Virus record (IMG/VR): IMGVR_UViG_3300031788_000007
Span: 1 to 64,000 of that record
From: a virus
Direction: 5' to 3' (one strand)
Length of the DNA: 64,000 bases
The notes under the pieces are model-generated. The model made no database searches, was not told the origin of the DNA, and was given only the letters and a program-made list of their open reading frames with translations. The translations under genes were made by a program, and so were the position numbers. Shown piece after piece: positions 620 to 63,874 of this stretch; position 1 is the stretch's first letter; every line of letters begins with the position of its first letter.

Positions 620-1207
620 GCACGCCAGTCCAAATTTTGGAGTAAAAACCGTGGTGTTCCGCGGGAAAGGAGGGCAGCCCTATGCGACGAACCGACCTGC
701 AAGACAATCAGAAGAGCAATTCGATGCGGTAGACGGGCGCCGGCCACGCCGGAGTTCAGTTGGAAGTAGCGCGGGCCTGGGGCAACCTGGGCTCGCGGTG
801 TTTTGGTCGTGAGATCTGGCCGTGGGGTTCGGGACTTCCTCAAAACCCACCTACGGCCGCAGCAGGATTGGCTGAGACGAGCCGGCGGCTGTCGGGTGGC
901 GTCGTAGCACGGCGGAATCGTCTACGGGGCGACAGCGGCCAGGAAACGGGGGCCTTGCGGGAGGGCTTGGAGCGGGGCAAGATGATTCAGGAGGAAGAAG
1001 CCATGCCTGAGCAGTTTTGGCACGTTTACAACTACTTGGCCCGTCAGTGGTACGAGACGGAATACGGGAAGGTTCCGTATGGGGATCGTTACTATGGGGT
1101 GGCGATGGATTATCTGTCTATGAGGGCAGCAACGGAGATGACTAGAATGGTCTGGGGTGAAAGCGATCAATCAACAGCGGCTTAGGCCGGGAGTAGGGGA
1201 GGAAACG

Positions 1208-2272
1208 ATGGGAATTAAGGAGAAGGTAGTTGAACTGCTTTGGGATTCTCTGAAAAGAGACCGCAGCAGCGGAAGTAATGACCGCAGGCTAACCGGCTGG
1301 GGAACGAAGACGCAAGACGGGCTGGTGGCCTGCATCGAGGAGATCACGAAGCAGCCGGAGCCGAAGGAAACTCCCTACGTTCCGAACGCGGTAGAGCTTG
1401 GCTTCATCGAGTACGCACGGGAGAACCTTGTCACCAACGAACTGGAGATCGACGACGGGCCAGACTGCAAGGGGAACTACCCAAAGGTGAGCCAGAGCGC
1501 AGACGGGGCTTTTGTAGCGGCCTGGGTATGGGTAAGCAACGAGCAGGCGGGAGTTGAGGAAGTGGAAGAGGAGGACACCGACGAAGTTTGCCCTCATTGT
1601 GGAGAGAAAGGCGTAGCGTATGGCGCTCACTGCAACATGGTCGATCACGAAGACACGCACATCTCAGAGGGATATTGCCCTGAGCATGGTCTGGTAAAAA
1701 CAGTAGACGACGCGGGTATTGACAAGTGCCCAGATTGCGGAAGAGCCACGTCTTTCGATGCGGAAGAGGCCGCACGTTTCGAGCATCAGGACGACGAGCC
1801 GGAAAGCAACTGCGAACGGGGCGAAGAGCCGATCAGCAAAGAAGGCTATGCGCGGGATGGGAATTGTGGTGGCGTGCTTTGCCGCACCTGCTCAATGAAG
1901 GACGACGCACTGCCGCCGGACCCGGAAGGCCAGAACGACGACCGGGCGAAGTGGGCAGGGGTGGCGCTCGATGCTTTTCAGTCCGAGACAGGAGCAGACG
2001 ACTGCGACAAGTTGGGCGACCTGTTGGGCGACCTCATGCACTGGTGCGACCGCAACAATCAAGAGTTTGAGTGGGCGCTTGACCGAGCCCGTGAGTATTA
2101 TCGCCAGGAGACGCTATCAGAGCCGGACGACGATCCAATGGACGTAGCCTCAACCGTTTGCCCCGAGGCCGTGAGGGGAAGCGCAGCCTGGGAAGCCAGC
2201 GGGCGGGAGCCGATGAGCATTTCTCCTCTTGAGGTATTGCTTCTAGCCGAGAAGGCTGGGGTGAAGCGTTGA
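1208..2272 (+). CDS. acidic, Cys-rich mosaic hypothetical early protein
   Basis: GGAGGA SD before ATG 1208; several CPxCG/CPxHG knuckles; C-terminal DLLGDLMHWCD...FEWALDRA motif typical of small phage proteins. Confidence 0.7.
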   Translation: MGIKEKVVELLWDSLKRDRSSGSNDRRLTGWGTKTQDGLVACIEEITKQPEPKETPYVPNAVELGFIEYARENLVTNELEIDDGPDCKGNYPKVSQSADGAFVAAWVWVSNEQAGVEEVEEEDTDEVCPHCGEKGVAYGAHCNMVDHEDTHISEGYCPEHGLVKTVDDAGIDKCPDCGRATSFDAEEAARFEHQDDEPESNCERGEEPISKEGYARDGNCGGVLCRTCSMKDDALPPDPEGQNDDRAKWAGVALDAFQSETGADDCDKLGDLLGDLMHWCDRNNQEFEWALDRAREYYRQETLSEPDDDPMDVASTVCPEAVRGSAAWEASGREPMSISPLEVLLLAEKAGVKR

Positions 2273-2437
2273 GGGCTAAGAGATGGCACGACCTCATCTT
2301 GGCGGGCTTTCTGATAGCGGCACTGGTTGAGCTTTTTATCCTTCCAGTGTGCAAGATCGTCATCGGTCATGCGGTATTGCCGATGGTGCAACGTTAACGA
2401 TTCACTATGGGGAAGAGAACAGAGGAGGAGTGCAACT

Positions 2438-2809
2438 ATGGGATGGGATGGAGCGCACGACCGCAGAAAGTGGCTAGAAGCGCAGAAAACAAAGACTTGG
2501 CCTTACGGTGAAAACACTTGCTCGTATCGCAAGCACCACGCGCACGGCCAGGAGGATTGGTTCATTGTTGACGTGAAAGCGCCGGATGGATCGTTGGTCG
2601 AATCGTTTATCGCCGTGACCTTGTGGGATGGGGGGTACAAGAAGGACATGAGCGAATCGATGGGTCCGTACTGCTACGGCTGCCCTATCGAGTGGCTTGA
2701 TGAAGTGCCGGAGCCGCCGCATCACCCGGATTACAACTGGCGCGACCGCCGCAGGAAGATCGAAGCGGACAGGCTGGAAGCAGGGGCATTGCTCTCTATG
2801 GGGAAGTAG
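2438..2809 (+). CDS. hypothetical protein (DUF6927-like KDMSESMGP..CP motif)
   Basis: GAGGAGGAG SD; motif YKKDMSESMGPYCYGCP recalled from mobile-element proteins. Confidence 0.6.
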   Translation: MGWDGAHDRRKWLEAQKTKTWPYGENTCSYRKHHAHGQEDWFIVDVKAPDGSLVESFIAVTLWDGGYKKDMSESMGPYCYGCPIEWLDEVPEPPHHPDYNWRDRRRKIEADRLEAGALLSMGK

Positions 2810-2844
2810 GAGACTATCAGTTATCGGCAACAGCCGATGGAGGA

Positions 2845-4330
2845 ATGGGGATGATTTTTCCAACACTGCACATGAACGGAACGAGCAAGCAACAATTGCT
2901 CGATGACTGTTGCGACATGGGCCATGCGCTCAATGCCGCAATGGAGAAGATGATCGAGAACGGTCCCAATGGCAGGGACTACTACCCTCAAGGCGACCAA
3001 GCCTTTGCTCAGGCCCGGAAAGAGCACATGGACCGCATCGCAAAGATTCACGCCGTTAAGGCTGAGATCGACCAGATTGCAGAGCACATTGCGGACGCGG
3101 AAGGAGGCCGATAGTGGTAAAAATCGGTAGGCGTTACGAGGAGATTGAGCGGCGCTACCCTCTGCTAATCGCGGCGATGAAGTGGGCGGCCATTCTCTCG
3201 ACGACCGAGGCCGTAGACTGCATCAAGGCAATTCAGGAGGAGCGCGGCAGCGGAGAGGCCGTGCAGCACTTTGGAGGCCCGGTGGCAGTGTTTGAGGGCG
3301 CGATGCGGTGCCGGAAGTGGGCGAAGCAGCTTCGCCAGGGAAGGAGGGCAATTTGAGGAGCCCTGATTTCATCATTAAGATCGCAGCCGACAGCATAGAT
3401 CGGTTGCGGCGTTCTGACGTGGAGCGCGTTCTGGAAAATTGCTCTGACGTGGAATTGGGTCCGACCGCAAAGTGGATTGTCGAGAACCGGGCGGATTTGG
3501 CCGTCAAAGTAGAAGACGAAGTGGCCTACCAGGAGGCACAGCGGTTTTCTCCGCATCGGCCAGCCTAAGCAGGGGCCTTGAATCTAAGGCCCACTCACTT
3601 CATTATGGGGATGGAGGCAGTCAATGAGAGCAACGGCACACAACACGAGAGGAGCCTGCCAGCGATGCGGCAAGGTAGGCTGTTTTGTTATGGCCGTAGC
3701 CTTCCAAGGAGACGGGACAGCAACCTTCCGTCACCTGTGCGCCAGTTGTGAGCGGATGGAGAAACACAAGAACGAGCCGCACCTGTTCATCGGGATCGAG
3801 TGGGTATTCATCGGGACGCCTGAGCCGGAGGAAGAGATCGAAGCGGAGCCGGTAGAAGTCTACAGCCCGCAAATGTGTTTGTTTTAATCGCGGCCCAGCC
3901 GCAGGAGGAGGGAAGAATGGAGACATGCCCACAATGTGAAGGAACGCCGGACCTGTGCAACGGCTATTGTGAAGGAACCGGCAAAGTGACGACCAGCCAT
4001 GCGGCAGAGTGGCATCGGCAGAATGATGAACCGAAGGCAGGGAAGACACTGGCCGACTTCGCCCACAGCGGGAAGCTCTTCAAGCGCCCGATGCACGCCA
4101 ACCCGCACGGATTTACGGCAGGCAGTGACAGCCTGAAAGAGATCCGCACATCGACATGGGGCGACCAGATCAACATTTGCTCAGACTTCCCACGGCTGAC
4201 CCGCGAAGACCTCACGGCGACCGACTGGGAAGAAGTAACACTCCCTAAAGAAGTCGAGGAGTACAGGAATTTCGGCGCGAACAACACCACGAACACCGGA
4301 GCCGACGGCCTGTTACCGGCGCTCAGTTAG
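2845..4330 (+). CDS. run of small hypothetical early genes (2845-3114, 3114-3356, ~3353-3568, 3624-3887, 3917-4330)
   Basis: Tightly packed same-strand ORFs with SD sites and overlapping stop/start codons. Confidence 0.6.
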
Positions 4331-4348
4331 TCCAAAATTTGGACTCGT

Positions 4349-4404
4349 GGCTTCTGGTGTTCTGGTGTCGTGGAATCTTCCAGAGCGCCGGGAGCCTTCT
4401 TTTT
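4349..4404 (+). terminator. rho-independent terminator
   Basis: GGCTTCTGGTGTTCTGG pairs with CCAGAGCGCCGGGAGCC (with G-U pairs), followed by TTCTTTTT; directly after palindrome 4329. Confidence 0.7.
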
Positions 4405-6817: not shown

Positions 6818-8429
6818 ATGCACAGCCCACACAAATACACGGCAGTTGATTACATGGGCCACCGTCCCGGCCTCTGCGATATTTGCAATGAAGCGGAGGG
6901 CGCACCCATCCACGTTTACACCTTCGCCGGCCTTGAAACCTGCGACCAGGACAGGGAAGCAGCCTTAGCCATTAGCCAGCGCGAGGAGATGGAGACGCGC
7001 CTACGGTCTACCAGAGGCGATATTTCGGCCCGATCTGGCAAGATGGAGCGGCACAGCCCGCTATTCTTCGGGACGGGAGACAACCCGCTGCTTTGGTAGC
7101 GTACCGATGTATTAACTGTCGGCATAGTTGCGTTAGCTTTGCCGATGCGGTCCCGGCCTGCGGCTGGTGTGGGTCTGGACCTATCTTTCAGAGAGTGGAG
7201 CACAGAGAGCCAGCAGAATGACAACCGCAAGAGGAGGCAGGAGCAATGCACATGATGGAGCGGATTTTAACGAACGCCATCAACGCCGGATTCGTGGGGA
7301 TGATTCCGGCAACCGTGGGAGCCGTGGAGCAAGAGACGCGGTATCAACAGGAGCTCGACCGGCAGGAAGAGCAATTCAGGCAGGAGCAGGCACAGCGAGC
7401 GCGGCGCCGGATACTGCGGCTTGGCTGCGAATAGGCGCCACCGTCACGGACTGGGGTCAGCTTCGGCTGGCCCCTTGCCGTCAGGAGGAAACAGGGACAC
7501 AGTAAGAGGAGAGGAGAAACAACCGATGAGCAACTTGGCAACGATCACCCACACACACCTTTATGCAGTAGTCATGCCACCGGCAGGGTACAAAGACGAT
7601 GTGGATTTCCAGCTTCGCACCCTCGCCCACAAAGAAGAGGCACTTGCACGGCAAGCGAGAGACCAGCGGCGGAACCTCGACGCCCAGACCCACGCCGACA
7701 GAGCGATTCGTTACCACCTGGAAGCGGAAGGCCGTTACGCGCCGACGATTCAACCAAGGCGGATAGTGGCTGATCTCCCGGCAGGAGAGAAGATAGCGAT
7801 TGCGTTCTTTACCTTCACGGCAGCTTGCGGCCTGTTCGGCTGGCTGGCAGGTATTCTGTAGGACAACGGCACGGCACCGGCGAACCCGGAGGAGATGAGG
7901 AGACATGGAAGCAGCGGAGAGAATAGGGAAACTGGTAGCGGCTCGATGCTTCAAAGAGCGCGGCAACCATTCACAGGCCCACTTGCTACAGGTAGAACTG
8001 GCGGGCTGGTGTCAGGTAGCGGCAGAGCTAGCCTTGAGAGTGGCAGACAACGCGCACACGGCGGCCCTGATGGAACCCAGCGACCGGCAGGACTGCGAGA
8101 CCTCAGAAGTGACGGAAGAGGCGAAAGCAGCTAACCGGGCGATGATAGCGGAGATGGAGCAGGACGGCGGCAGGACGCGGATCGGCAACACTCCAAGTTG
8201 TGATCTATGCGGAGAGCAGCACAGCGAGGAGCGGTCATGCGAGGAGCGTACAGCGATCGTCAACACGCCACGGTTTAAGGCAACCCATCGCGGTCAGGTT
8301 ATAGGTTGGTACGACACAGCCGCAGAGGCGGAGGCGGCAATAGACGCCGAAGCGGCAGGCTGCGACGAGTGCGGAGAGATCGACGGCCACGGCCCGGCCT
8401 GCTCCCTCAATCACGCCAACTTCGTCTAG
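6818..8429 (+). CDS. hypothetical genes (~6818-7099, 7246-7434, 7526-7861 with C-terminal TM helix, ~7905-8429)
   Basis: SD-preceded same-strand ORFs. Confidence 0.55.
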
Positions 8430-8450
8430 CACTCCAGAATTTGGACTCAC

Positions 8451-8480
8451 GCCCCCGGCTTCGGCTGGGGGCTTTCTTTT
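8451..8480 (+). terminator. strong rho-independent terminator
   Basis: GCCCCCGGC-TTCG-GCTGGGGGC followed by TTTCTTTT. Confidence 0.9.
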
Positions 8481-9359: not shown

Positions 9360-9362
9360 GGT

Positions 9363-11288: not shown

Positions 11289-11939
11289 ATGGGAACTTCA
11301 AAGCCTGTTCGTGGAGAGGTAGCCTTGAAACTCTATTTCTTCGGGTCAGAGATGGTTTCGCAATCGGCGTATCTTGAGATCGAAATTCTCTACCCGCAAG
11401 AGTTAGAATACCTTCGGAACATTGAAGCGCACATGCTTGCGGTCATCAACGAGTTTGGGATACCGGGGTTGGCCGCTCCACAGATCGGGTTTCCGATTCA
11501 GATGGTAGTGGTGAGGTTATCGGGAGGGAAGCGGTTGACGCTTTTGAATCCTCATATCGAGAGGATGTACGGAGCGGAGACAGAATATCCCGAAGGCTGC
11601 ATAAGTTGCCCTCCAGGCGGAAACCGATGCCCTACGGCGAGGATGCAATTCATCAACGTAATAGGGAGTTCGATCGAAGAGCCGGCAGTTGTGAAAGACT
11701 GGCATTTCTCCAGCAGGGATGCGAGGGTGGTGCAGCATGAAGTAGATCACTTGGCGGGGACATTCTTTGTAGACAGAGCGAGTGTGGTGGAGAAGTCGAA
11801 GGTGTTGGATCAGTTCCACCAGTGGAAGCACACATTCAAACAGAATGGGAGTCCAAATTTTGGACTCACACGAGGAGGACACAATGGCAGAGCAACCACC
11901 AGTACCCAGGCGCAGCATTCCCGAACAGTCACCGCTTGA
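11289..11939 (+). CDS. def: peptide deformylase (copy 1, divergent)
   Basis: GLAAPQIG, EGCIS and QHEVDHLAG motifs. Confidence 0.9.
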   Translation: MGTSKPVRGEVALKLYFFGSEMVSQSAYLEIEILYPQELEYLRNIEAHMLAVINEFGIPGLAAPQIGFPIQMVVVRLSGGKRLTLLNPHIERMYGAETEYPEGCISCPPGGNRCPTARMQFINVIGSSIEEPAVVKDWHFSSRDARVVQHEVDHLAGTFFVDRASVVEKSKVLDQFHQWKHTFKQNGSPNFGLTRGGHNGRATTSTQAQHSRTVTA

Positions 11940-16275: not shown

Positions 16276-16596
16276 ATGGACGTATCAAGAAGGAAGTTCT
16301 TCGGAGTAGGAGCAACAGTAATGGCGGCAGCAGCTATCCCGGCAGTAGCAGCCGAGAAGCCTGCGGACGAGGCCGTAGGGCCGATGATGTTTGAACATAC
16401 CTGCGACAGAGGAGCATCGCGACTGACGCCTGAAGAGGTGACGGAGATTCAGAAGGAGGCTCCGTGGATGTATCGAGGCTGCGGAACACGCTTTCGGTGG
16501 TGGTTTGGAATGCCGGTGATCTGCCCGAACTGCGGCTGGCACTATGTGTTCACAATCGAAGATGTGAAGACCAACTTTTACAAGCGGGTTCAGTAG
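16276..16596 (+). CDS. Tat-signal-bearing Cys-rich small protein
   Basis: MDVSRRKFF, hydrophobic core and AVAA site; C...C...CPNC. Confidence 0.75.
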   Translation: MDVSRRKFFGVGATVMAAAAIPAVAAEKPADEAVGPMMFEHTCDRGASRLTPEEVTEIQKEAPWMYRGCGTRFRWWFGMPVICPNCGWHYVFTIEDVKTNFYKRVQ

Positions 16597-16623
16597 TCCA
16601 AATTTTGGAGCCGAGGAGGGGTT

Positions 16624-16929
16624 ATGGAATGGGTGAAGCGTAGAGTATTCCAGTTTCAAAAAAAAGACCCGTGCCACACGGAGATTGAGCATGTATGTTT
16701 CTTCAGGCTCCGCAGCGACGGGACGATGTGGTATCAGGTGTCGCGGCTCTCAATGGCCGAAATGATTCATCGGCTTCCCGGCGGGTGGCTACATGATAAG
16801 TGGAAGCGGTTCTTGGCAGAGGAAACAAAAGTTCCGAAGGTAACAGTCGAAGAGTTCGATAGAGAGTTCGAGGCTTGCATGAACCGTATGCGCGGCGTCG
16901 AGGTCGAGTTGATGTTCAAAAACACGTAG
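16624..16929 (+). CDS. hypothetical protein flanked by two palindromes
   Basis: GAGGAGG SD; palindromes at 16595 and 16928. Confidence 0.7.
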   Translation: MEWVKRRVFQFQKKDPCHTEIEHVCFFRLRSDGTMWYQVSRLSMAEMIHRLPGGWLHDKWKRFLAEETKVPKVTVEEFDREFEACMNRMRGVEVELMFKNT

Positions 16930-16959
16930 TCCAAATTTTGGAGTAAGGGGAGGAGAAAG

Positions 16960-17589
16960 ATGCCAGCATTCAAGACGGAATTTAGCTGTCCGAAGTGCAA
17001 GCGTGAAACGGGGCAGTCGAACCAGATTTCAGCCGCCGAGGGAAGGTTGACGTGCCCGGCCAACTCGAATCATCGGTGGGACGACACCGCGGCCTTCTAC
17101 GCAGACGGGCCTCAAATGGAGTTCAAGGTAGGGCCGGCCAAGTTCCCACCTGTTGAGGGGCAGACGCCGATCACCCTGAAGATACCCTTGCGGATCAAGA
17201 CCGATCTATCCGCTCAGTGGGGGAGTGACGAGGCAGTTTCGGCCAGGGTAGCCGACATCCTTTTACAGATGGCCGAGGGCGAAGTGATGATCCTTGGGAT
17301 GACAGACAAAGGGCGTCTGTTTGACCGCCTTGGACAGAAGTTCTCAAATTCCAGTGAACTTGTTGGCATAGTCTATGCGAAGATGTGTGAAGTAGACGAA
17401 GCCAAGGGTGAGCGGGACGCAGCCGTAGAAGACCTAAAGGCTTACGAGTCGAGGTCGCCGGGGAGGGTTATCGTGGATTTGGGAGACCAGTTCGCAACCG
17501 CTCAGGCGAAGGCTAAGGATGCGGAGACCCCACTCAAGCTCTGGATCGAAGAGCGGACACGGATGGCACTTCAAGAGAACTGGTTTTGA
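16960..17589 (+). CDS. zinc-ribbon plus RHH-like/coiled-coil protein
   Basis: CPKC...CPANSNHRW; ITLKIPLRIK RHH-like strand. Confidence 0.6.
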   Translation: MPAFKTEFSCPKCKRETGQSNQISAAEGRLTCPANSNHRWDDTAAFYADGPQMEFKVGPAKFPPVEGQTPITLKIPLRIKTDLSAQWGSDEAVSARVADILLQMAEGEVMILGMTDKGRLFDRLGQKFSNSSELVGIVYAKMCEVDEAKGERDAAVEDLKAYESRSPGRVIVDLGDQFATAQAKAKDAETPLKLWIEERTRMALQENWF

Positions 17590-19670: not shown

Positions 19671-19856
19671 GGGCAAGAGTAGCGGTTACCGAGAAATCGG
19701 AGAGGCCGCAGCAGCCGCGCAAGGGAGAAATCCTGAGTGCGGCTTTTCTTTTGTCCGAGAGGCCCCAAATCTTTCCTGGGGGCAACCTCAGCGGTGGAGG
19801 CCGCCGGCCGAGCGATCGGTCGCAATAAAAAACCCAGGGGGCAACCCCGGAAAGGA
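19671..19856 (+). ncRNA. candidate structured RNA / leader with GNRA-capped hairpins
   Basis: Closing stem 19671-79/19748-56 enclosing twin GA-GAAA-TC hairpins; further GCAA and GCGA tetraloop stems. Confidence 0.65.
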
Positions 19857-19863
19857 CTACACC

Positions 19864-19914
19864 ATGGCACGCAAAAAGGGCCGCAAGGGTGGACGGAAGC
19901 ACGGCCGCAAGTAG
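19864..19914 (+). CDS. 16-aa protamine-like peptide MARKKGRKGGRKHGRK
   Basis: AAAGGA SD, ATG...TAG, 9/16 residues K/R. Confidence 0.7.
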   Translation: MARKKGRKGGRKHGRK

Positions 19915-19984
19915 TTCGCGGCAGTCAGCAGTAAACGGGGGGCGTTAACAGCGCCCCTCCATCACACCTCAAGGGGAGCATCCA

Positions 19985-20512: not shown

Positions 20513-20597
20513 GCAACGATAACAGGTAAGCAGTCGGAAACGGCGATCTTATCCCGAGCTTCGCGGAACCCGAAAGGGAAGCGAGGAAGGAAGTTAG

Positions 20598-22735: not shown

Positions 22736-22760
22736 TCGGCCTGATTGAGAGGACAAGACA

Positions 22761-23432: not shown

Positions 23433-23444
23433 CCGGAGGGCAGC

Positions 23445-23851: not shown

Positions 23852-23864
23852 GTAGGAGGGTGTC

Positions 23865-24783
23865 ATGTACGGATACGCATACGGGTTTCTTCCAATGCAG
23901 TTGCTTGACAGCTACGACGACGATGGCCCCTCTCTCGGAGAACACGTCTCAGAGACGAAGCGTGAAACAAAACAAGGCAAGAGCGACAGGGCGAAGAGTA
24001 CCGCGGGCGCGATTGGAAGTTCCCTGAGTAGCATGGGAAAAGACGAATCCGACCGTGCATCGTCGATCTCGCAAAACATCCGTCCGGTCCAGTACCGCAA
24101 GGGTGGCAAGGTCCGCAAGACGGGCCGAGCCATCGTCCACAAGAATGAGCGTGTAATCCCTGCCAGCAAGCGCAAGAAGGCCGAGAAGGTCATGCGGAAG
24201 GCTGGGATGAGGCTCACGAATAAGAAGGGCCGGAAGTCTTCAGGGAGGTCGTAGCCTATGCCGTGGGGCAGCAAGGACGCCAAGAGGCACACAAAGAAGG
24301 CGAAGTTGCCTAAACATAAGCGGCAGTGGGCTCATGTGGCCGACTCGGTTCTTGAGAGGACAGGGGATGAAGGTGCCGCAGTACGGGCGGCAAATGGTGT
24401 CGTGAAGAAGTCTGGAAAGAAGCGAAAGTCAAAGCGGTCTAAGGGCCGCACGAAGGGAAGGTAGTCATGGCGAAGCGCGAGAAGGACGAGAAGCCCTCAG
24501 ACGAAGCCAGGGAGCACAGCGTTGGTTTCTTGAAGAAGGCGGAGCGGTTGGCGGAGAAGAAGAGCAATCGCGGCAAAAAGCGCAGCAGTAAGGGTCGCGG
24601 AAAGGGGAGGTCGTAATGGCATCCAGAACCGTCAAGAAGGCGCTTCCCGATCGAGAGGAAGCAAGGACTTGGAAGGGCGGTACGGTGAAGCGGGCTCTTC
24701 CTGAGCGCGAGACAGCGAAGCCGAAGAAGCAGCGTGGAAAGGTGAAGCGGGCCTTGCCGGTATCGAGAACACGTTCGCGGTAG
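23865..24783 (+). CDS. four small basic proteins (23865-24254, 24258-24464, 24467-24616, 24616-24783)
   Basis: All end in K/R/S/G tails; last two translated by hand (MAKREKDEKP...RGKGRS; MASRTVKKALP...RTRSR). Confidence 0.75.
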
Positions 24784-24803
24784 TCCAAAATTTGGAGTAA
24801 GAC

Positions 24804-28973: not shown

Positions 28974-28989
28974 GACTCCAAAATTTGGA

Positions 28990-29205
28990 CTATTCTCGGA
29001 ACGGATCAATCCCCCGCTCTCGCAGGAACACCAGATCCTTCTGAGTGAACTCCAGCAGCGGCGACTCGACAATCACAAACACATCTTCGCAGCGAGGGGC
29101 TTCAAATATCCTCAAGCCCTCCTGTGGCCGGTGATCCGAGTTGGGGATGGGTCTAAGGTAGTGGCGTATGCTCATGCGCTTGCTCCAAGGGAAGAGTCTT
29201 CTCAT
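28990..29205 (-). CDS. hypothetical protein
   Basis: Coupled to the def copy 2 stop; ends at palindrome 28975. Confidence 0.55.
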   Translation of the reverse strand: MRRLFPWSKRMSIRHYLRPIPNSDHRPQEGLRIFEAPRCEDVFVIVESPLLEFTQKDLVFLRERGIDPFRE

Positions 29206-31206: not shown

Positions 31207-33277
31207 ATGGTGGGAAAAGAGAAAAGATTACCGGAGCATCCAAGAGCAAAGTGCATCCATCACGGCGAGATATTCATAGTCGTCGCGTGGGATGCTTTCT
31301 TTGCGGTCGGGCCGTTGCTTGGGCAGGGGAGCACGGCAGATGAAGCCTGGGAGAGCGCAGGGCGGCCTACGATGGCATCGGTGATGCCTACTGTTAACGC
31401 AGCGGTTCTCAGCGGAGAGCGGTATTTCAGGAAGCATCGGGGAAAGAGGTAGTTATGGCAATCACACTAAACTTCGCCTGCAACGATCCCGACAACGGGA
31501 ACTTTGTAGGCCGCTTCGACCGGATGGACTTAGACGCCGGGGATCTTCACATGGAGTTCGAGGGAAGTGAGACTTCAGTTGAGTTCGACTTCCCTACTCG
31601 TGGCGGCTATGGGAACGTCACGGTCGGAGAGAAGCAGACGACCTCGCTGGCATACAAAGAGTGGTATGGGAATTGGTGCTGGAATGCGGCGTCTTTTACC
31701 TGGGCGGAAGCGTTGGAGATCATCAACTATCTTGGCGCTACAGGTGAGTGGAGCATGACCGAGGGGCCTTGCTCTCTGTTTGATGCGTTCAACAAGCGTC
31801 ACAGGATTACACAGACGGAGTGGAAGACTGAGAACGAAGCGGGGAGGGTAGGCTGTGAAAGTTTGGATACTAGAACGCGACCATGAGCCGATCACGACGC
31901 TCCGCGATACCCCTGAAGGCACGGCTGCTGCTAGAAGTATCCTCAACAGCCTTCCAACGGGAGAGGATCACTACTACGACGCAGTTCTTTACGAGCGCAT
32001 TGAGCCGGGGCCGCGAGTCCAAAATTTGGAGTCACGATGATTACCTGCCGATACTGCGGAGAGAAGATTGTGCCGGATACCCGCGAGGGTTGGCTGCTCG
32101 ACATTCACCAGCCGGCGGGGGTGTTTAAGAGGGTCTGGGGCCGCACAGGAGGAATCTTCGGCTGGATGCACGCTCCGAAGACCGCGAAGGCCCGCCATTG
32201 CGATTACTGGGCCGAGGCTAGACCGAACTGGCGCCGGGCGCTCAGGGGCCGCAGGGAGAGGATAGGGAGGGTTTCAGCATGAAGATCAAACTAGAACTCG
32301 AAGACTTCCGTTTCGCCACGACAAGGGGAGCGACTTTCGGCGATGTCCGCTGGCTACTTGTGGATGTAGGAGGTAAGCCTTTTTCGGTGTACACCACGAT
32401 GAGCCCACAGCCATTTCAGTCGCCAGAGAAGAGCGAATACTACGACCGCCTGTTGATCGAGAAGATGGAGTTAATGCTTCGGATGGTGTTCGTGGATGCT
32501 TGTGCAGCGATACCGCCGGGGACGGCGATACTTGACGAGGAAGTGCGATGAGCGACGAGAGCATCCTTGGACTTCTCCTTCGGGCGCACAAAGATTGCTG
32601 TGCTCAGGCTTATGGGGAAGAGTTTATCCACAAAAACGTCAGCGCTATGTGCTGTTACCAACAGGCGGCACAGAGCATCGAGTCTGCAATCAAGTCGGTA
32701 TTCATGGCTCAAGCTCACGTGATTGCCGACAAGAAGCCGAGGGGGTGACAATGAGCAACTGGGTCTATGACAAGTGGATGGAGCCGAAGGTGGTCAAGAC
32801 GGAGATACTGCCTCCCGAGACTGCGCAAGAGCGGGCGTACCGCGATCCCATGTACTTCGCAAAGCACTATCTGCTTGGCGAGTGGCCGGTCAACGATGCC
32901 GTCTACAGCCGCGAGGAAGTGGAGAAAATGGTGAATCGGGGAGAGATTTTCCCAGCGCGGGCGGATGAGTTGCTGCGGCTTCGCTACGAGGTTAAGCGCA
33001 AGGGAGAGAAGGTGCAGGTATGCGAAAAGTAAGGATCACAGCAATGGGGCCTTTGGGTTGGAAGGACACAGAGGACATCTTCGAGGAGGACGATTTGGTT
33101 CTTATCTCGAACGGTCGAGTGAAGCCGGTTCGTCAGTTGCGGGAGGGGGAAGTTCTGGTACGGTTCAACGGCCAGCCGGGGACTCCGCAGTGGTGGACGG
33201 TGATGAAGATGGAGTGGTTGAGGAGGGATCATCATAGAAGTCATCTTGACAAACCATCTTTGGGGACGGACACTTAA
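31207..33277 (+). CDS. run of small hypothetical genes (~31207-31452, 31455-31886, 31855-32040, 32037-32282, 32279-32551, 32548-32748, 32751-33032, 33020-33277)
   Basis: Translationally coupled ATGA/GTGA overlaps. Confidence 0.6.
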
Positions 33278-36328: not shown

Positions 36329-36331
36329 AGA

Positions 36332-40287: not shown

Positions 40288-40917
40288 ATGAATCATCCGA
40301 TAACGTGGGGAGAAGTGGTAACGGTCATCATTTGCATCTGGTTGGGGTTGCTTGTGCTTAGATTAGTCTTCGGAGTGATAGGAGCCTTGTTTATCCACCG
40401 GAAAGACATGAAGACCGACGAGGAAGTGGAAACGCATGAGCCATACGCAGGCAAGACTTTGGGCCTGTAGTCCAAAATTTGGAGTGACAAGGAGAGTGAT
40501 ATGGGAGATATGCGATGGTTGAGAATGGAGTGGGTGAAGCCGTTTCCGATAGAACGCGACGACGGATACGGGGGAAAGATCAAAGTGGGCGTCCAGATGT
40601 TGCGGGCGCTGAGAAGCGATGGGCAACTATTCGAGGTCCACGTTGAAGTTAATGAGGTTCCGTTCGATCTTACCGTGAAGCAGTTGAGGTTGACCCTAGA
40701 CGCCATGCTCGACAATCCAGCATTGCCGCCTTCGTTAGACGAAGAGAGCGGCTTGCCGATGACACGGAAGGTTCACTCAGAAACCTTCAAAGGGCAAGGG
40801 AATTGGTTCGAGGCGGCAGATTGGGATAAGTGGGTCGAGTGGATGAATACTTATACCCCAACCCCTGACAACTGGTGGCTATTCTCGTCATTTAAAGACA
40901 AGTTACGGGAGGCGTGA
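40288..40917 (+). CDS. small TM protein (40288-40470) and hypothetical (40501-40917)
   Basis: SD sites; separated by palindrome 40469. Confidence 0.6.
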
Positions 40918-46515: not shown

Positions 46516-46561
46516 GAGTATGCTGTTGTGGGGAGTCCAAAATTTGGACTGAGGAGGGGAT

Positions 46562-49006: not shown

Positions 49007-49765
49007 GTGATGGGTAAAGAGAAATACGAACCGATCAACACCGCAAGAGAAGATCAAAAGACTATCACCTTTGTGTGCTCTTGCTGCGGTTCCCTCGTCA
49101 GGTCGGACTACACAGACGCACACGACAGGAAATGCGGGACGCCTGCGGAAAAGGGGATGGATGTGGTGTCAAATATGACTACCAAAGTTCTCGAATTAGT
49201 TGATGAGAGGAGAAAATCGGCTCCATCTCCGATACAAATATGGAGATTCCCTGAACCTGGGAAGTCCTATATTTTAGCGGCTGATCCCTGTACGGGGAGC
49301 GAGGGAGGAGACAATGCGGCGATTGAAGTGATCGACGCAGAGACGGGGGAGCAATGCGCCGAGTTTGCCGCAGTGGTTTCCCCGGAAGACTTAGCTCCCA
49401 TAATCCTTGATTTGGCGCAAAGGTACAACAGTGCGGAAGTGGCAGTCGAGGTGAACAGCGTCGGGCTGATTACAAACAACATCCTGATACGCCAATACGA
49501 GAACGTCTATCGCTATAAGCGCCTAGATAGGGTCAACCATACCGTGACCGATCTTATCGGTTGGTGGACGGACGTAAAAAAAACGAAGGCACTGATGGAA
49601 TCAGCATTCCGCGTAAGCGTTGAGAGGAATCCAAAACTGCTTAACAGCGCGGGCCTGATTGCCGAAATCCTTGCCTATGACGAGAATGGGTATGAGAAGA
49701 ATGATCGGTTCTCGGCGATGATGATTGCTCAAGCGGTTCGTGCCGAAAGAATGGTTACAGTCTAG
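49007..49765 (+). CDS. stand-alone terminase nuclease domain with N-terminal Cys knuckle
   Basis: YILAADPCTG..GGD, AVEVNS; 29/43 identical to TerL over AVEVNS...IGWWT. Confidence 0.9.
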   Translation: MMGKEKYEPINTAREDQKTITFVCSCCGSLVRSDYTDAHDRKCGTPAEKGMDVVSNMTTKVLELVDERRKSAPSPIQIWRFPEPGKSYILAADPCTGSEGGDNAAIEVIDAETGEQCAEFAAVVSPEDLAPIILDLAQRYNSAEVAVEVNSVGLITNNILIRQYENVYRYKRLDRVNHTVTDLIGWWTDVKKTKALMESAFRVSVERNPKLLNSAGLIAEILAYDENGYEKNDRFSAMMIAQAVRAERMVTV

Positions 49766-49789
49766 TCCAAATTTTGGACCGAGGGAATC

Positions 49790-51516: not shown

Positions 51517-54500
51517 GTGGCAGTTCTCGACCAGACCGAGGCTCAAATTCCTGTCGGGTTGACCCCAATCCCACTCGGGCAAGCGCCATCTAGTGAGGCA
51601 AAAATCCCTGCCGGGCTTACTCCTATCCCACTCGGTAGTCAGCAATCGAGTCCAAATTTTGGAGTGAAGTCGCAGACTCAGGCGACTCACGCCGTTACCC
51701 CTCCAGTAGATGTAAAGAGTTCTATCCCTGCCGGATTGACGCCCATTCCTAAGGAAGATTCTCACGTTGACGCTTTCATGGCGGGAATCAGGAAGCCAGC
51801 GGCTCTCCGTCAGCAGGTCTACGACTACACAGTGGGGTCTGGTTATAACGCAGACCAAGGACGCCAGCGCCAGAATGAGTACGACTACGCCATCAAGAAC
51901 GGGATGAACCCACAGCGAGCGCAGGAGTTCGCCCTGGGGATGCAGTTCGAGGGCGGGACACCGAAGTACAATCTCACAGACCAAGAGAAGTCCGATCTCT
52001 ACGGGAAGGCGAAACAGGCCGCAGAGGGATTTAAGAGCGGCCAGCAGAAAACGATTGAAAGTCATTTCCTTGGAGAATCATTATTGCCGGGGGATGACGA
52101 AACATATCGTCAAAACATCGACCCCGACGAATACGCAAGAAACTATGTCAAGGGGTATACCTACGCTCGGTCTCAGGGATGGGATGAAGGGAAGGCGCAA
52201 GAGTACGCCACGTCTGATGCCGCATCGCAGTGGATGACTCGGGCTGGAGAGTGGATTGATCCGAAGTGGCACTCCGTCAAAAGCGCGATTCTCAACGTCA
52301 TTCCCGGCATCTCGAAGCCGGAGGAGAGAGCGGAGAACCCGTTCTTTGCGACGAATCAGGGGTATCGAGAGAATCAGTTCCACGTCTACCATGAGGCTGC
52401 TTGGCTGGATGAGCACGTAGGCAAGGTAGCTGGCAGCGTAGACGCTGGGCTCGGAAACGTGGTCAACGGCTTTTCTACTCCCGGCATGGCAGCATTGATG
52501 GTTGCCAGCGAAGGGCAGGGACTTCTTGCCCGTGGCGGTATAGGGGCGGCCGAAGAAGTCGAGACTGCGAATCTGGCTACACGTGCACTTGGAAGGGTGG
52601 CGCGGGCCGGGGGAAGACAACTTGGCCGGTCGGCAGCGGCAAGCGAGGAGATTGATTCAGCGCAGGCTCTCAGGGCGGCAGAGAACGCAGAAAAGGCCAT
52701 CCGAGCAATTCGTGACGCGAGACTTCCTGTGTCGGCACAGAAGGTGGCGAGAACGTTCAATAAACTCGTCACGGTAGGCTTTACGGCTCAGATGGCGCAA
52801 GGTTCCGCTGAACAACTGGAGCAGGCCGCTAAAACCGCGTTCCCCGGAGAAGGGAAGGACGGCGACAGTGCGCTGGCTGTCGAGTATGCGGTTGAGGGTC
52901 TTGTCAGCGGGTTGATGGCCGTGCAGGGTGGAAACCATCTTCGGCATGAGCATCTTCTCACGTCCGATCTCAACTCAAAGACCGCCGAGATGTACGGGCC
53001 GCAAAAGCTCTCGGATGTTGGCGGCTTACATGAGGGTCCGAGACAGAACGCCGCGACCAAATTTGGCGACCTCGACCCGTATCGACAGGCCGCAGTCATT
53101 CAGCGGTTGATTGAAGATGATCCGAAGTATAAAGCCGCAGAGGATGCAAGCGAGAAGGAGCAAAAGCGGCTTGCGAAGAAGATAGCCTACCGCTACAACA
53201 CAGCATTGCAGCAGGCGTGGAATCCCAACGCGGTAGATCGCATGGTGCGGGTGATTGACAACCATCGCGCAGCGAACGAATGGTACGGCGCAAGACAGAA
53301 GGCGGAGGATGAGGCTCGGAAGCACTACCTCGACCAGATCACGAAGCTCATTGACCTCCACAAGCAAGACAAAGCCGACGAAGAGGAACTTGTTAAGGCT
53401 GAGGCAGAGCGCCGGGCCGCGGCAAGGGAAGGCCGTCCGGTACGGAAGACTGTAGACGCGCAGAAGAGGGAAGAGAGTCGCAAGGTAACTCTGACGAACG
53501 CGGCGCAGATTGCCGAGCATCGGCAGGGGGTAGTAGATGCCCGCGATGTAGCGGATAAGGAAACGGCCGAGCAGGAGAGATCGGAGGCTCAGGACTCCAC
53601 CACGAACTCTCAAAAAGAATGGGACGATCGGTATGCTCGCGTCTACGGTATGCACGCCAGGAATAACCCTGATTGGTCTATGCCTCGTCTCCACGGTGAG
53701 ACGCTAGATATTGTCGGAGAAAGGCCCAAGGAGGATAAACAGGGAGAGTTACGCCACCCGGACGAGGTGACCGACGACCAAGGGTATGTGTCGTACCGTA
53801 GTCAGGTGTTTGGAGGGGAAGAGCACCACTTCGGCGTAGCTCAGACTCCAGACGGGAAGTGGGGAGTCTATCGGAAGACGCCGGATGGGATTGAATACCT
53901 GGGAGCCGGGGGAATCTTTGACGGCCAGCCGCAAGAAAGCTACCTTGCGCCCAATGAAGAGACGGCCAAGGCTCTCGCTCAGATCACTTCCCTTCGGGTC
54001 AATGCCGATTACGCTCTTGAGGAGCATGGAACCACGCCGGAGCGGGAAGCGGAACGGAAGCAACTCCGCGACTTAGAGCACAGTCTGGTAGATGGCACGA
54101 TCACGGGAGAGCAAGCACGCAAAGCCGCCGGACTGCCGGAGGAAGCGCAAGAAGCGCAGGCCAAGGAAAAGGCTAATCACGAGATCGAAGCCGCCAGAGC
54201 AGGAGCATTGAACGGTCCCCTTCACGGCAGAACGAAAGCTCAATACGAAGACGAGTTCCTTGCTGGGCTGGAAGAGGCGGGATGGGAGCCGGAGACGATC
54301 GAAGCGATGATCGACACCCTCCCTCTTCAACTTCGGATGGAGGCTGAGAACAATCTCCACTACGTCGGCCGTTCGGGAGACTGGATTGCCTCGAAGAAGG
54401 GTGTGACCTGGGTTCTCGACTCGAAGGGCATGTTGCAGCCGGACGATGGGATGAGTGCGCCGATCCCACTGATGAAGAATGGCCGCTACTCGACGCAGGC

Positions 54501-57500: not shown

Positions 57501-60500
57501 TGACCCCGAGATCGAGAAGGGCATTGGCACCCGCATTTTGAAGTTGACGAAGGCTTCAGATGAGACGACCTTCATCCATGAGTTCGCGCACGTCATCTTC
57601 CCGATGCTCTCTCAAGAGGACATGCGGGCCATCGACACGATCACCGGAGAGAAGGGTGAGCACTGGAAGCATGGCGACCCGCTCCGCGGCGAAGCCTACA
57701 AAACTGTCAGCGAGAAGTTTGCGCACGGGCTTGAGAAGTTCCTGCGGGACGAGAACCCGACCGGCTTTAGTGCTGAGGTGAAGAAGGTACTCGCCAAGGT
57801 CAAGGAGATGTTCCAAGCGGCCTATCTTCGGTTCCGTAGCGACCCGCTCTCGACGTTCAATCTGAGTGAGGACGCGAAGGAAGTCTTTGCGAATATGTTC
57901 CACATCGAAGACCTCGACCCCGCAGACGACTTCAGAAAGCAGCGAGAGGAAGCTCGCAAAGCAGACGCCAAGCAGAAGAAGGGCATGGTGAAGCCGGAAG
58001 CGGCTTTGCACCCAATTCAGCAGTTGGCGAAAGACCTGGGGCCGAAGCCAGTCCAAATTTTGGAGTCGATTGACGGATCGGTTGAGGATTCTTCAGGGGA
58101 GCGCGTGGACCCGTCGAAGCCGATGGCTGCATTCGTTTACGACGATGAAGAACATGCAGCGCAAGCCTATCTAAAAGCCGCAGAGGAAGGCTCTGGCGTG
58201 GCCGGCGTGGAGTTCGTGCAGACGAAGGACGGAAAGTACGCTGTCCGGTTCAACGTCAAGGCCAAGGTGCCAAAAGACATTCTCTATCAGGACGCGCAAG
58301 AGAAGCACCCCGGCCTGAGACTTGAGGACATGGAAGCGAAGTTGAAGACGACAACCTCGCCGATCCTGAAGAAGTTCCTTGAGACTCAGATTGGCAGGTT
58401 GAAAGCGGAGATCCGTAACGAGCCAAGGCCGCAGGTAGAACCCGGTTTGGCGAAGCAGGCAATCGCGGAGGTGAAACGTGGCACAGAAGGGCGAAAGACA
58501 GACACGGGACGAGCGGGGGTATCCGACTTACGAGGAGTACCTGATGGAAATCCTGGGGATGCAAAGCAAGCAGGAGTTGGACGACTTTCTCGGCCGCCCA
58601 TCATGGGGATGCCTGGACATGCAAGTGCCGGAGGTGCCGCCGATCGAAATAGACCCGGAGGAGGAAGTTCTCAGCCAGTTAACCTCGCAAACGTAACGCC
58701 GGTCAGACTCCAGCCGTTCGAGAGGGGGCGCGGAACACCAGTTGGCATCCTCGCCGGAGAGAAGTTTGACGAGAAGGTGTGGAGAGATGGCCTAAAGAGG
58801 GCTGGCCTTCCAGAGAACATGCCAGCGCCGACAGTGACGCTCTCCCCCGAGGTTGCTCGGACATTGAAGTATGCAGGACAGAAGCAGATCGTTCAGACCG
58901 TCCTATCAGCACTGGAGCAAGGAGACGGGGCTGTGATTGCATCTGTGGCGGGTTCCGGCAAGACATGGACGGAGATGGGTGTGGTTAAGGAAACGATCCT
59001 TCGGAACCCCGACGCCAAAGTTCTTGTCATCACCATGAATCGCGGATTGCTAGAAGAGGGCGACGATGCCGTTCGACAGGTAGCGAAGAACGGCTACGAT
59101 TTGAAGGTTGAAACCGACATCCTCGACAAACCTCCCGAGCCGGGTGTTTACGGGGCAACCTACCAGCGGTTGCTCAATAACTCCATCTACGCTCAAACGC
59201 AGTGGGACTTGGTGATCGCCGACGAGTCAGGAGCAGCGCGTAACTGGTACAGAGATGAAAACCAGCAGGGCAAACTCCTGAAGGCTGTGATGGACAACGC
59301 CAAGAAGGGTGTGTACGTCTCGGCGACTCCGTTCCATTCGCCTAACGAATACGGCTACGCCGAAAAGTTGAACTTGTGGCCGAAGGGAGGATTTGAAGAC
59401 TGGATCAAGAACAACTTTGCCCACGAGAAAATCGGCGACAAGGTGGTTGCGAAGCTCGACCCGGCAAAGCAGGCAAAACTACGTGAGCAGATGGTTGAGC
59501 GTGGGCAGTTCATCTCGCAGCAAATCTCCTACGATGGATTCTCTGTCCACTTCGGAGTGGTCCCTGTAACCGACGTGGTGGAACGGAAGCTAGACCGCAT
59601 CCATCAAGGAATTGCAGTTATGAAGAGGGAGTTGCTGAAGCAGGGCAAGAAGGGACTCTCTGAGCGGGTATCTGCTTTTGAGGCGACGTACACGAAAGCC
59701 TATCTTGAGCGGTCGAGACTGCCAGAGGCCATCGAAGTCGCAAAGAAAGCAAGAGCGCAGGGATGGCAGGTAGCCATATTCTCAGAAACCACATCTGAAG
59801 ACCTTTTCCGCCGGCCGGTTGGCCCGAAGGAGGAGCCGGGAACGTATCGTCTGTTAGACGAGGAAACCGGCGGCCAAATATCGCGCATCATGCCAGAGTT
59901 CCCGAACATTGCGGACGAACTCAAAGCCGAGTTTGGCGATGAGATGGGTGATTACAGCGGCGTTGGGAATACCGACGCGCAGCGCGAAGAGGCGAAGCAA
60001 GCCTTTTTGAAGGGGAAGAAGAAAGTTCTCTACACTTCATATGCCGCAGGAGGAATCGGCATCAACCTGCAAGACAAAGACGGAGATAAGCCAAGAATCT
60101 CCATCTTCCTTGGGCCGCCGTACTCTGGAATTCTACTCGAACAATCATTGGCGAGAACGTGGCGATTGGGAGTGAAGTCGAACGCGAGGGCGGTGTTCCT
60201 TGCGACAGACTCAGAGCCGGACATTCGTTTGATGGCTACAAAGATTGGGCCTCGCATGAGGGCGTTGAGCGCGGCGGTTCTAGGCGACCGTGATTCTTTG
60301 GCTTCGGTGATGACGAACTACACCGACGAAGAGAAGATGCGTGAACATCAGGACATGATGGCGTTCGACCAGGGCAACGAAGTGAAGGTTGACGCTCAGG
60401 GCTTCCAAGTGCGGAGCAAGCGGAAGGTCAATTTCGACAACTGGAGTTCGATCACCTTCCCGAACGCTGAAGAAGCCAAGAACAAAGGTATGCAGGTGGA

Positions 60501-63003: not shown

Positions 63004-63050
63004 TAGGAGTATGATTTTAATGTCTTCAGATTTGAAGACGAGGAGGACGT

Positions 63051-63224
63051 ATGGAGAAAGCGATAACTTTTGTGGAAGGAACGCAAACATGGATTGGCAA
63101 CCTTACAGAGAAGCGCGACAGGCTTCTTCGGGACGCCGAGCGTGTCAGCAAAGCAATCGCCTTTCTAGAGGCGCACCCGGAATTGGTAGAACTGTATACG
63201 GAGTATGTGGAAATAATGCCCTAA
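63051..63224 (+). CDS. small hypothetical protein (57 aa)
   Basis: GAGGAGG SD; translated by hand MEKAITFVEG...YVEIMP; TATGAT box at 63010. Confidence 0.65.
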   Translation: MEKAITFVEGTQTWIGNLTEKRDRLLRDAERVSKAIAFLEAHPELVELYTEYVEIMP

Positions 63225-63874
63225 GTAGAAGACTGGGAAGTGGGCCGTTCCTTAACCGACTCCAAAATTTGGAGTACCTGTTGCGCCAACTTGACCTTTT
63301 GAGCGAAGTCGGCTTTCTGTGATTCAGTGACGATCATTGAAAGCCGCTGCTGGAGGGCTTCATCGGCGCGGAACTCTTTATCGGTAGGGATGAGTGAGAC
63401 TTCAGCCGACAGGCGGGAGCGGAAGAGTTCAATCATCTCGGAGAGCAAGAATGGCGCGAGTTGTTTATGGAGAGTCTTTTTAGACCTTTTGAGCATCGTT
63501 TCTCGCACAAACAACGGAGAGTAGAGAAAGTGTTTTTTATCAACCCGCACAGAAGGAATAGCGTGTCTCAGTACGTATCGTCCCATCATTATCTGGCTCA
63601 TGCCGAGGAGTTCGGCACACTCGCCCTGAGTGAGTAATGCTTTTTCAGTGAGGCCGGCGGGAACGGGGAAGTGGCGCCTGTGGATGATGGCGCCCAGGCG
63701 AAGCTGCTCTGCGTACTCGGGGGTGGGGTCGAGGTAACGCTTATCGGGGTTCTTCCCAATGACAGCCAAGCAGCCCTTCCGTTCGAGGGTACGGACCTGT
63801 CTAGGGGACAGCCGTAGGCGGTCACAGATGCCGGAGAGGGAGAGCCATGTCTGTTCAGAGGATGGGTTGTGCAT
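63221..63874 (-). CDS. MerR/excisionase-like HTH DNA-binding protein
   Basis: WLSLSGICDRLRLSPRQVR and LLTQGECAELLGMS...IPSVRV winged-HTH-like units. Confidence 0.7.
   Translation of the reverse strand: MHNPSSEQTWLSLSGICDRLRLSPRQVRTLERKGCLAVIGKNPDKRYLDPTPEYAEQLRLGAIIHRRHFPVPAGLTEKALLTQGECAELLGMSQIMMGRYVLRHAIPSVRVDKKHFLYSPLFVRETMLKRSKKTLHKQLAPFLLSEMIELFRSRLSAEVSLIPTDKEFRADEALQQRLSMIVTESQKADFAQKVKLAQQVLQILESVKERPTSQSST

Follow-up and report, generated by a model that had tools for sequence, protein, structure and literature searches.

What does a short palindrome do that recurs about once per 4 kb along a phage genome? The question is raised by a 64,000-nucleotide stretch of viral DNA (hereafter the window), bases 1-64000 of the 78,982-bp IMG/VR record IMGVR_UViG_3300031788_000007. 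The record comes from an uncultivated peat phage, is judged to be about 81% complete, has a G+C content of 55% and carries nearly all of its genes on the plus strand. The first-pass annotation of the window had listed 15 copies of a 17-bp palindrome; searching for TCCAAAWTTTGGA with at most one mismatch recovered them all, as 14 exact copies and one with a single mismatch (8433, TCCAGAATTTGGA), whereas 100 dinucleotide-preserving shuffles gave 0.08 matches on average and never more than 1. The full record holds 17 exact and two one-mismatch copies, 19 altogether, and no other word or palindrome in the genome is comparably repeated, leaving this one as its sole highly repeated word. A literature search with the motif string returned no relevant paper. 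Judging from sequence features, we hold the chances to be about evenly balanced that the palindrome is a duplex-DNA site of a homodimeric protein acting genome-wide, most plausibly as a set of roadblocks or operators or as loading points. This reading draws on the symmetry and strictness of the copies, on selection at the sequence level, on conserved positions, intergenic bias and even spacing, and on enrichment in phage.

Scanning IMG/VR for the exact pattern gave 71 loci, of which about 45 have a G+C content of 50-57%. Relatives of proteins of this phage, at about 22-99% identity, are encoded by 46 of the 71; the other loci are A+T-rich singletons, as chance predicts. After sites had been oriented by the local coding strand and near-identical contexts removed, 92 remained for a sequence logo, in which information is confined to positions -8 to +8; its consensus, AGTCCAAAWTTTGGACT, is perfectly palindromic. 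Variants of the half-site include AGTCC, ACTCC and, in G003, ATTCC. Both halves are conserved equally, and the middle base, read in gene orientation, is A in 44 sites and T in 41, with no strand preference. Beyond +/-8 the flanks are uninformative, except for a downstream purine richness that stems from ribosome-binding sites. The motif is also strict: copies with no or one mismatch are hugely enriched, whereas those with two are near the level of a composition-matched control word (24 vs 17). Thus, symmetry and strictness together form the signature of two-fold-symmetric duplex DNA recognition, not of a structure-selected hairpin or a directional signal. A dimeric-protein site selected at the DNA level, as proposed at first pass, is the best-supported reading, given the symmetric footprint, the neutral centre and the uninformative flanks. 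On such a site the GTCC and GGAC blocks would lie about one helical turn apart, so that two recognition elements could reach them from the same face of the helix, and the AAAWTTT centre may offer a narrow minor groove at the dyad.

The palindrome might instead act in RNA, as an intercistronic mRNA hairpin that is recognised by a host or phage protein and serves mRNA processing, stabilisation or translational control, although we think this improbable. In its favour, the perfect 17-mer forms a hairpin of -6.6 kcal/mol when folded as RNA, most sites are followed by a ribosome-binding site within 0-10 nt, and in a Lentisphaerae repeat described below the core is the middle one of three hairpins. 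At two sites, 24784 and 32018, the GGAG of the palindrome is the only ribosome-binding-like sequence before the start codon, and the site must therefore be transcribed. Elsewhere in the genome genes abut or overlap, so nearness to the ribosome-binding site may simply reflect minimal spacers. Against a hairpin stand the equally conserved halves and the centre that favours neither strand, as well as a dearth of compensatory change: a compensatory pair occurs in one of the 24 two-mismatch copies, and nine of the one-mismatch copies break pairing whereas four retain a wobble pair. Pairing at +/-7 appears unselected, since complementarity there (52 observed, 44.5 expected) is not above expectation; in this genome +/-7 is mismatched in 11 of 15 sites, and the common mismatched forms retain about -3 kcal/mol. 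Moreover, 7 of the 19 sites are away from any start codon, and no Rfam family was found in the window or in the bacterial repeat loci. Nor do the sites resemble intrinsic terminators: the A/T run lies inside the stem-loop with no T-run after it, and a terminator scan flagged one site, on the antisense strand. Peat metatranscriptome contigs overlap two sites, but these contigs show no RNA ends and so favour no model.

A phage-specific promoter, either a hairpin of the N4 type, used by a giant RNA polymerase carried in the virion, or a CAAAAT element resembling a -10 box, seems to us the least probable of the readings considered. It would account for the position of sites just upstream of ribosome-binding sites and for the few sigma-70-like promoters detectable in more than 60 kb of same-strand genes; an adjoining gene encodes a 3828-aa (amino acid) virion-type protein, and N4 early promoters resemble the 7-bp stem and 3-nt loop of the palindrome. 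Yet neither the giant protein, which has no sequence match in PDB, nor any other product yielded an RNA polymerase domain; for this reason, and because the sites are symmetric, have no directional flank and are spread genome-wide, we rejected the N4-like form. A profile search with PF00940 gave no match, but the control for that search was silent. We likewise rejected the CAAAAT form on account of the centre base, which would set its direction and shows no orientation preference. At 24784 and 32018, a transcript beginning at the 3' edge of the site would lose the only ribosome-binding-like sequence; some sites are found ahead of a terminator, where genes converge, or far inside genes; and in G004, a phage unrelated to this one, a site has a clear TTGACA-N18-TATCAT promoter about 55 nt upstream of it.

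Site positions are kept in relatives, a matter that the first-pass annotation had left to be checked. The copy at the tail-fibre junction, 8-9 nt ahead of the gene, persists in seven relatives (58-84% protein identity), where the DNA upstream is unalignable and the centre base varies. Inside gene 72163-72795, past the end of the window, the site is intact in two orthologues (40-48% amino acid identity) whose flanking codons diverge, and its middle codon flips between ATT (Ile) and AAT (Asn). This flip within a retained site indicates selection on the nucleic-acid sequence and not on the protein. Several junctions also share sites with the more distant phages G001 (complete, 103.7 kb, with terminal repeats), G002 and G003. 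Turnover is nevertheless substantial, with 8 sites in 104 kb in G001 vs 19 in 51 kb in G003. Orthologues of the one-mismatch copy, site 3, occur in four loci (L005, L020, L043 and L057) and all carry a mismatch or a centre other than A or T (G in L005), at varying hit positions; site 3 may be weak by design, or decaying. It is also the copy that separates the last gene of a left-hand block of small genes from a strong terminator.

Placement is far from random with respect to genes. Thirteen of the 19 sites are intergenic, where about 11% would be expected (P ~5e-9), and six are in genes. The usual order is stop codon, site, a gap of 0-10 nt, ribosome-binding site and ATG, the stop often providing the AG of the site. 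The first-pass description of this layout held up: six copies begin on a TAG stop, at distance 0 (4331, 16597, 16930, 24784, 40471, 49766), a ribosome-binding site follows within 0-10 nt at most copies, and five lie in coding sequences (11852, 32018, 51651, 58052, 63261), two of them within the last codons of the upstream gene. Its claim that two copies precede terminators was borne out for 8433, which stands before 8451-8472, but is marginal for 4331, where the hairpin at 4377-4394 is weak. The copies at 28977 and 63261 lie where gene direction changes or coding is poor.

Spacing had been described as mostly 3-6 kb, and the measured gaps agree, running from 333 to 8453 bp. In the comparison with random placement that the annotation had suggested, the gaps proved more even (coefficient of variation 0.48 vs 0.95, P ~4e-4), and the evenness is more marked still against random gene junctions. 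The same trend was seen in G001 (P 0.02-0.07) and for the exact copies of G003 (P 0.02). In-gene sites within the giant gene that encodes the 3828-aa protein are present in G000, G001 and G003, at positions that differ except for one apparently common to G001 and G003; such lineage-specific positions fit selection against long site-free stretches. Site 13, one of those in the giant gene, is truly coding because the peptide repeats around it continue on both sides. These repeats, three copies of IPxGLTPIP(L/K), are found at the N-terminus of the protein (51517-51760), with the palindrome copy between the second and the third.

The roughly 23 sites to be expected in the full genome would be a scattered operator set that lets a single protein act on the entire chromosome. 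Most likely the bound protein would block or modulate transcription through the long same-strand operons, much as symmetric stoperators might; alternatively, the sites could load a protein whose spreading or sliding covers a few kb. If they are roadblocks or loading points, the sites would define whole-genome switching of a phage of about 100 kb with its genes on a single strand.

The closest precedent is a set of 17-bp dyad-symmetric repeats, TGTTCGGNNNCCGAACA, in Cluster O mycobacteriophages, whose function was left unexplained and which its authors read as sites of a dimeric protein (PMC4351075). Both repeats comprise 7-bp arms, which are invariant, and a 3-bp A/T-rich centre, follow no orientation rule, and occur as a mix of intergenic, start-proximal and in-gene copies at similar positions in relatives; Cluster O genomes of about 70 kb hold dozens of copies. 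Cassette gain and loss between copies is a further likeness, here for gene 16624-16929. In contrast to Cluster O, the present motif has an unrelated sequence and lineage (a peat phage with a P22-like portal vs a Mycobacterium siphovirus), an A/T centre that is invariant save for the middle base, about half the density (19 per 79 kb vs 34 per ~70 kb) and significantly even spacing. It is also found in unrelated phages and bacterial REP-like (repetitive extragenic palindromic) elements. The Cluster O repeat is essentially absent from host genomes; counts of the present motif in candidate host genomes are given below.

Other known systems match less well. The orientation of stoperators is linked to transcription, whereas the palindrome has none. 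KorB operators number about a dozen over a replicon of some 60 kb. Phage P1 (~94 kb) has one repressor, C1, with many scattered operators, and it too encodes a giant virion-borne helicase-type protein; its operators are asymmetric and overlap promoters. In the Cluster A phages L5 and Bxb1, repressor-bound stoperators are reported to halt elongation genome-wide (PMC9283540, PMC6550527). The likeness is in the many short copies in short gaps of long operons; the difference is that stoperators are asymmetric and bound by a monomeric repressor (PMC9283540), whereas the palindrome is perfect and has no copy at the switch-like promoter region of this genome. At its operators OB (TTTAGCSGCTAAA) on IncP-1 plasmids, KorB binds and then, as a sliding clamp, moves to promoters up to 1.5 kb away (PMC11790492). 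These operators share the odd length, the degenerate centre and the dispersal of the palindrome, but KorB is a ParB-family CTPase (PMC11790492) and this record has no ParB_N domain. The start-associated sequences (SAS) and extended SAS (ESAS) of Cluster K are 13-bp repeats a few bases upstream of many starts, with function and binder unknown (PMC3203893). They resemble the palindrome in lying near starts, in sometimes containing the upstream stop codon and in being absent from the host. Unlike it, SAS are non-palindromic, point one way, sit 3-7 bp before starts in the ribosome-binding position (PMC3203893) and are limited to the non-structural half of the genome, whereas the palindrome is symmetric and genome-wide, is off starts at 7 of 19 sites and usually comes with a separate ribosome-binding site. 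Since stoperators, KorB operators and SAS each differ in at least one defining feature, we place the palindrome, by its sequence, with the Cluster O repeats in a descriptive class of genome-wide phage dyad repeats. It is a second, independent example from a different lineage and habitat; in the literature searched we found no follow-up explaining the Cluster O repeats, described in 2015. The Ile/Asn flip, the even spacing with lineage-specific giant-gene sites, and the sharing across groups open the question to testing.

The palindrome is not confined to relatives of this phage. The G004-type group (G004, L009, L021, L033 and L053), which is unrelated to it, carries the same palindrome and has a site before each of several small genes at one genome end. 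The group shares one small protein with this phage, which does not look like a DNA-binding protein, and none with G001-G003. A second palindrome of 15 bp, GTCTAGAWTCTAGAC, is often found beside the main one in this group (L009, L033, L053; G004 46.8-53.2 kb, L204). It has the same outer GTC...GAC and the same length as the main palindrome, and the pairing suggests two related specificities. In a further contig, G005 (158.7 kb, 38% G+C), four GTCCA-N5-TGGAC sites are spaced 28-32 bp apart (L208 4085-4351); the array, which ends 13 nt before a TTGACA-N17-TATCAT promoter heading a small winged-helix-like gene, looks like an operator or iteron array.

Among prokaryotes, a scan of one genome per species yielded at least 120 loci, mostly chance singletons in A+T-rich genomes; at least nine of the matches listed are from Acidobacteriaceae or Acidobacteriota genome bins. 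Of 201 genomes sampled from the candidate host family (Acidobacteriaceae type), to which one of these bins belongs, 20 hold one or two copies, a count that includes the unpublished G035 (19 of 200 without it), against 1 for a reversed control word. The motif is thus over-represented in this family without being a repeat there, and a host repeat, which the first-pass annotation had entertained, is ruled out for the family by these counts: with about one copy per 40 Mb in the sample, it is roughly 10,000 times rarer than in the phage. A Chi-like nuclease-protection site was also rejected, as Chi sequences are short and asymmetric, unlike a 17-bp palindrome, and candidate host genomes almost lack the motif. 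The Acidobacteria copies examined lie, at times in pairs, in regions with many small and defence-type genes, and paired copies stand in mobile-looking islands. As an exact word, the 17-mer also makes a convenient marker of this peat-phage group, one that may aid in assigning hosts.

Compound repeats in two other phyla contain the core of the motif. A Victivallis vadensis (Lentisphaerae) bin contains 24 copies of the 13-bp core, each forming the central hairpin in a dispersed repeat of three hairpins with the layout CACACTAAAGTGTG-AAC-core-GTC-CAGCCTTTAGGCTG, and a repeat in Pirellulaceae (Planctomycetes) likewise places it between hairpins (Table 1). Both are REP-like compound repeats, whereas in phages only the bare 17-mer is conserved. 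The presence of a 13-17-bp core in unrelated phages, Acidobacteria islands and these REP-like repeats is the basis for a variant in which the palindrome would serve as a "public" cis-code whose reader is a DNA-binding protein of the host, or one that is widely mobile, and not a factor of this phage alone. In the phage, whose copies leave no stretch beyond about 8 kb without a site, their even spacing could then give points of entry or anchorage to a protein able to silence, coat or protect the entire chromosome. We rate this variant as unlikely, though only slightly less probable than an RNA element. Sharing of the site between unrelated phages and bacterial repeats does, however, narrow the search for a binder to a host factor or a mobile regulator.

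The binder of a genome-wide dimeric site could be encoded by the phage or by the host, and the latter is a real alternative because the unrelated G004 group uses the site without a detectable counterpart of the candidate proteins. The genome encodes several helix-turn-helix (HTH) proteins, of which the HTH_3 genes and gene 63221-63769 (Table 1) are candidates. The latter is one of only two clearly coding minus-strand genes in the window, and with 63855-64064 it forms a minus-strand pair that faces a 66-aa Cro-like HTH_3 gene (64141-64341) across a 76-bp gap. The gap contains a TTGACA promoter, and there is a TATTAT box 6 nt before the minus-strand ATG, which is apparently leaderless. This divergent, switch-like unit is conserved in G001 and G003 (L072 855-1341 corresponds to 63855-64341 of the record); no integrase was seen, and no immunity repressor was identified. 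The binders proposed at first pass fared poorly: the HTH_17 match behind the assignment of 63221-63874 falls under the Pfam threshold, a ParB-like domain of the giant protein was not detectable in domain searches, and the product of 16960-17589 has no family match. We also discarded the small protein 2851-3114, the only family shared with G004-type phages, which is absent from G001-G003 and has no DNA-binding signature; in two contigs, no site occurs within 10 kb of its close homologues. The idea of an XRE protein shared with G004 was dropped, there being no HTH_3 match in G004 and no close relatives of the XRE protein retrieved from IMG/VR. No homology was found between G004 gene A and 72163-72795, both of which contain an in-frame site (their common VQNLD/LQILD peptide arises because the site is read in one reading frame), nor any similarity of the latter to the winged-helix protein of G005.

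Several points weigh against a homodimeric protein acting genome-wide. No binder has been identified; we infer binding itself, as well as its effect, from the pattern of sites. BLAST and profile searches detected no DNA-binding protein that G004-type phages have in common with this phage. In this genome the divergent region 64065-64140 is free of copies, and none stands beside a recognisable promoter, so the classical repressor-operator-promoter arrangement is not seen, although in G003 a copy does lie in the equivalent of the divergent region. The sites of G002 are not regularly spaced, and site density differs about five-fold among relatives. Finally, the core between hairpins in REP-like repeats suggests possible action as a hairpin in some settings.

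Even spacing, and in-gene sites within the one very long gene, would also be expected of centromere-like or nucleoid-organising sites of the parS, matS or NBS (Noc-binding site) type that serve partition, compaction or packaging. matS is an odd-length palindrome with a degenerate centre. The KorB operator has the same form (PMC11790492), and the complete relative G001, alone, has a weak PF02195 match, in a protein with ParB_N and HTH domains (L197 8508-9326). We nonetheless give an architectural role little credence. No match to ParB_N (PF02195) was found in this 81%-complete record, from which the region equivalent to the ParB-like locus of G001 is absent. A perfect canonical parS (TGTTCCACGTGGAACA) occurs once in G001 (17907-17922, L193) and once in the unrelated G004 (52627-52642; L204 12627-12642), there about 20 bp from a palindrome copy and between a small-terminase-like gene and a small-gene operon. 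That parS would be the expected target of the ParB-type protein of G001, which weakens the case for the palindrome as its cognate site. The five-fold variation in density argues against this role as well, and the strong intergenic bias suits gene-level action better.

The sites also coincide with boundaries of exchange. Blocks of similarity with relatives start or end at 8433, 16597, 16930 and 24784, and sites 5 and 6 bracket a 101-aa cassette gene, 16624-16929, that shows 99% identity to its L020 counterpart, compared with 77-78% for the neighbouring genes. Together with the paired copies in Acidobacteria islands, the 24 REP-like copies in Victivallis and the Cluster O precedent for cassette gain and loss between copies (PMC4351075), this might point to a cassette-boundary or selfish repeat, REP- or attC-like, that acts as a recombination or mobility signal for small-gene exchange, with regulation secondary. 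Such a repeat is to our minds doubtful, on a par with the "public" code. Conservation ends at +/-8, and in the phages the unit is neither embedded in a larger element nor bordered by hairpins or a target duplication; no transposase, integrase or RAYT-like (REP-associated tyrosine transposase) gene was found among the proteins scanned, although no RAYT-specific search was made. Retention of orthologous junctions over deep divergence and even spacing are unexpected of a selfish spreader, and phage gene boundaries are mosaic junctions anyway.

The positions of the sites and of the genes and repeats referred to above are collected in Table 1.

Table 1. Palindrome copies, candidate binder genes, other phage genes and bacterial repeats containing the core
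Feature	Position	Strand	Description
Site 1	627..643		AGTCCAAATTTTGGAGT; 9 nt past stop of small gene 449-619
Site 2	4329..4345		AGTCCAAAATTTGGACT; AG of site completes the TAG stop codon of gene 3917-4330
Site 3	8431..8447		One mismatch (ACTCCAGAATTTGGACT); between stop of 7905-8429 and terminator
Terminator-like hairpin	8451..8472	+	Strong, with T-run; directly after site 3
Site 4	11850..11866		Last codons of deformylase-like gene 11325-11939; 19 nt before strong ribosome-binding site and ATG 11884
Site 5	16595..16611		Fused to TAG stop; ATG 16624 14 nt downstream
Site 6	16928..16944		Fused to TAG stop; ATG 16960 17 nt downstream; kept before orthologues in G001, G003
Site 7	24782..24798		7 nt before ATG of tail-fibre-like gene 24804-25784; its GGAG is the ribosome-binding site
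Site 8	28975..28991		Poorly coding stretch between plus-strand operon end (28709) and minus-strand deformylase gene
Site 9	32016..32032		6 nt before ATG 32037 of small Cys-rich (CxxC) protein; overlaps end of 31855-32040
Site 10	40469..40485		Fused to TAG stop; ATG 40501 17 nt downstream; sites near junction in G001, G002, G003
Site 11	46534..46550		13 nt before ATG of TerL-ATPase-like gene 46562-47365; same junction occupied in G002, G003
Site 12	49764..49780		Fused to TAG stop of 49010-49765; ATG 49790 11 nt downstream
Site 13	51649..51665		Inside 3828-aa gene (codons SPNFGV), between IPxGLTPIP peptide repeats
Site 14	58050..58066		Inside 3828-aa gene (codons VQILES); not at sites of G001/G003 orthologues
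Site 15	63259..63275		Last codons of minus-strand gene 63221-63769; counterparts at and just past end of G003 orthologue
Further in-gene site	within 72163-72795 of full record		Beyond window
Candidate binders, HTH_3 type	64141-64341, 66884-67297, 71397-71768 of full record		
Candidate DNA-binding gene	63221-63769 (listed to 63874)	-	Weak HTH_17 match below cut-off; conserved in G001, G003
Candidate minus-strand partner	63855-64064	-	
Large terminase	13890-16052		
P22-like portal	17601-19436		
Major head protein	21635-22735		
Tail-fibre-like protein	24804-25784		
Internal-virion-like protein	41541-44888		
3828-aa protein	51517-63003		11.5-kb gene; SNF2/Strawberry-notch-type helicase domains
Exonuclease, RecT, DnaB helicase, several HTH_3 proteins	past window end in full record		
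Victivallis vadensis bin repeat loci	L099, L118, L123, L136, L139, L143, L144, L147, L160, L174, L187		
Pirellulaceae (Planctomycetes) repeat	L148 4674-5735		Core at ~150-bp period between two other hairpins
Further locus listed with three-hairpin repeats	L106 4365-4527		

A megablast search of GenBank phages with 12 kb of phage sequence gave no match. The scaffold and major-head region (19691-23885) is matched at 99% identity or more by peat metatranscriptome contigs from several studies; thus, peat RNA libraries contain this phage or one very closely related to it. Two free-standing genes, 46562-47365 and 49010-49765, resemble pieces of the large terminase of the phage itself (about 21-26% identity to TerL of relatives over about 255 aa, and 35-37% over 160-215 aa), and each adjoins a palindrome copy. 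The phage has two peptide deformylase genes, one per strand (11325-11939, plus; 29205-29687, minus). Within the virion gene region, 34321-37756 encodes a group 1 (GT4-type) glycosyltransferase and a B12-binding radical SAM enzyme.

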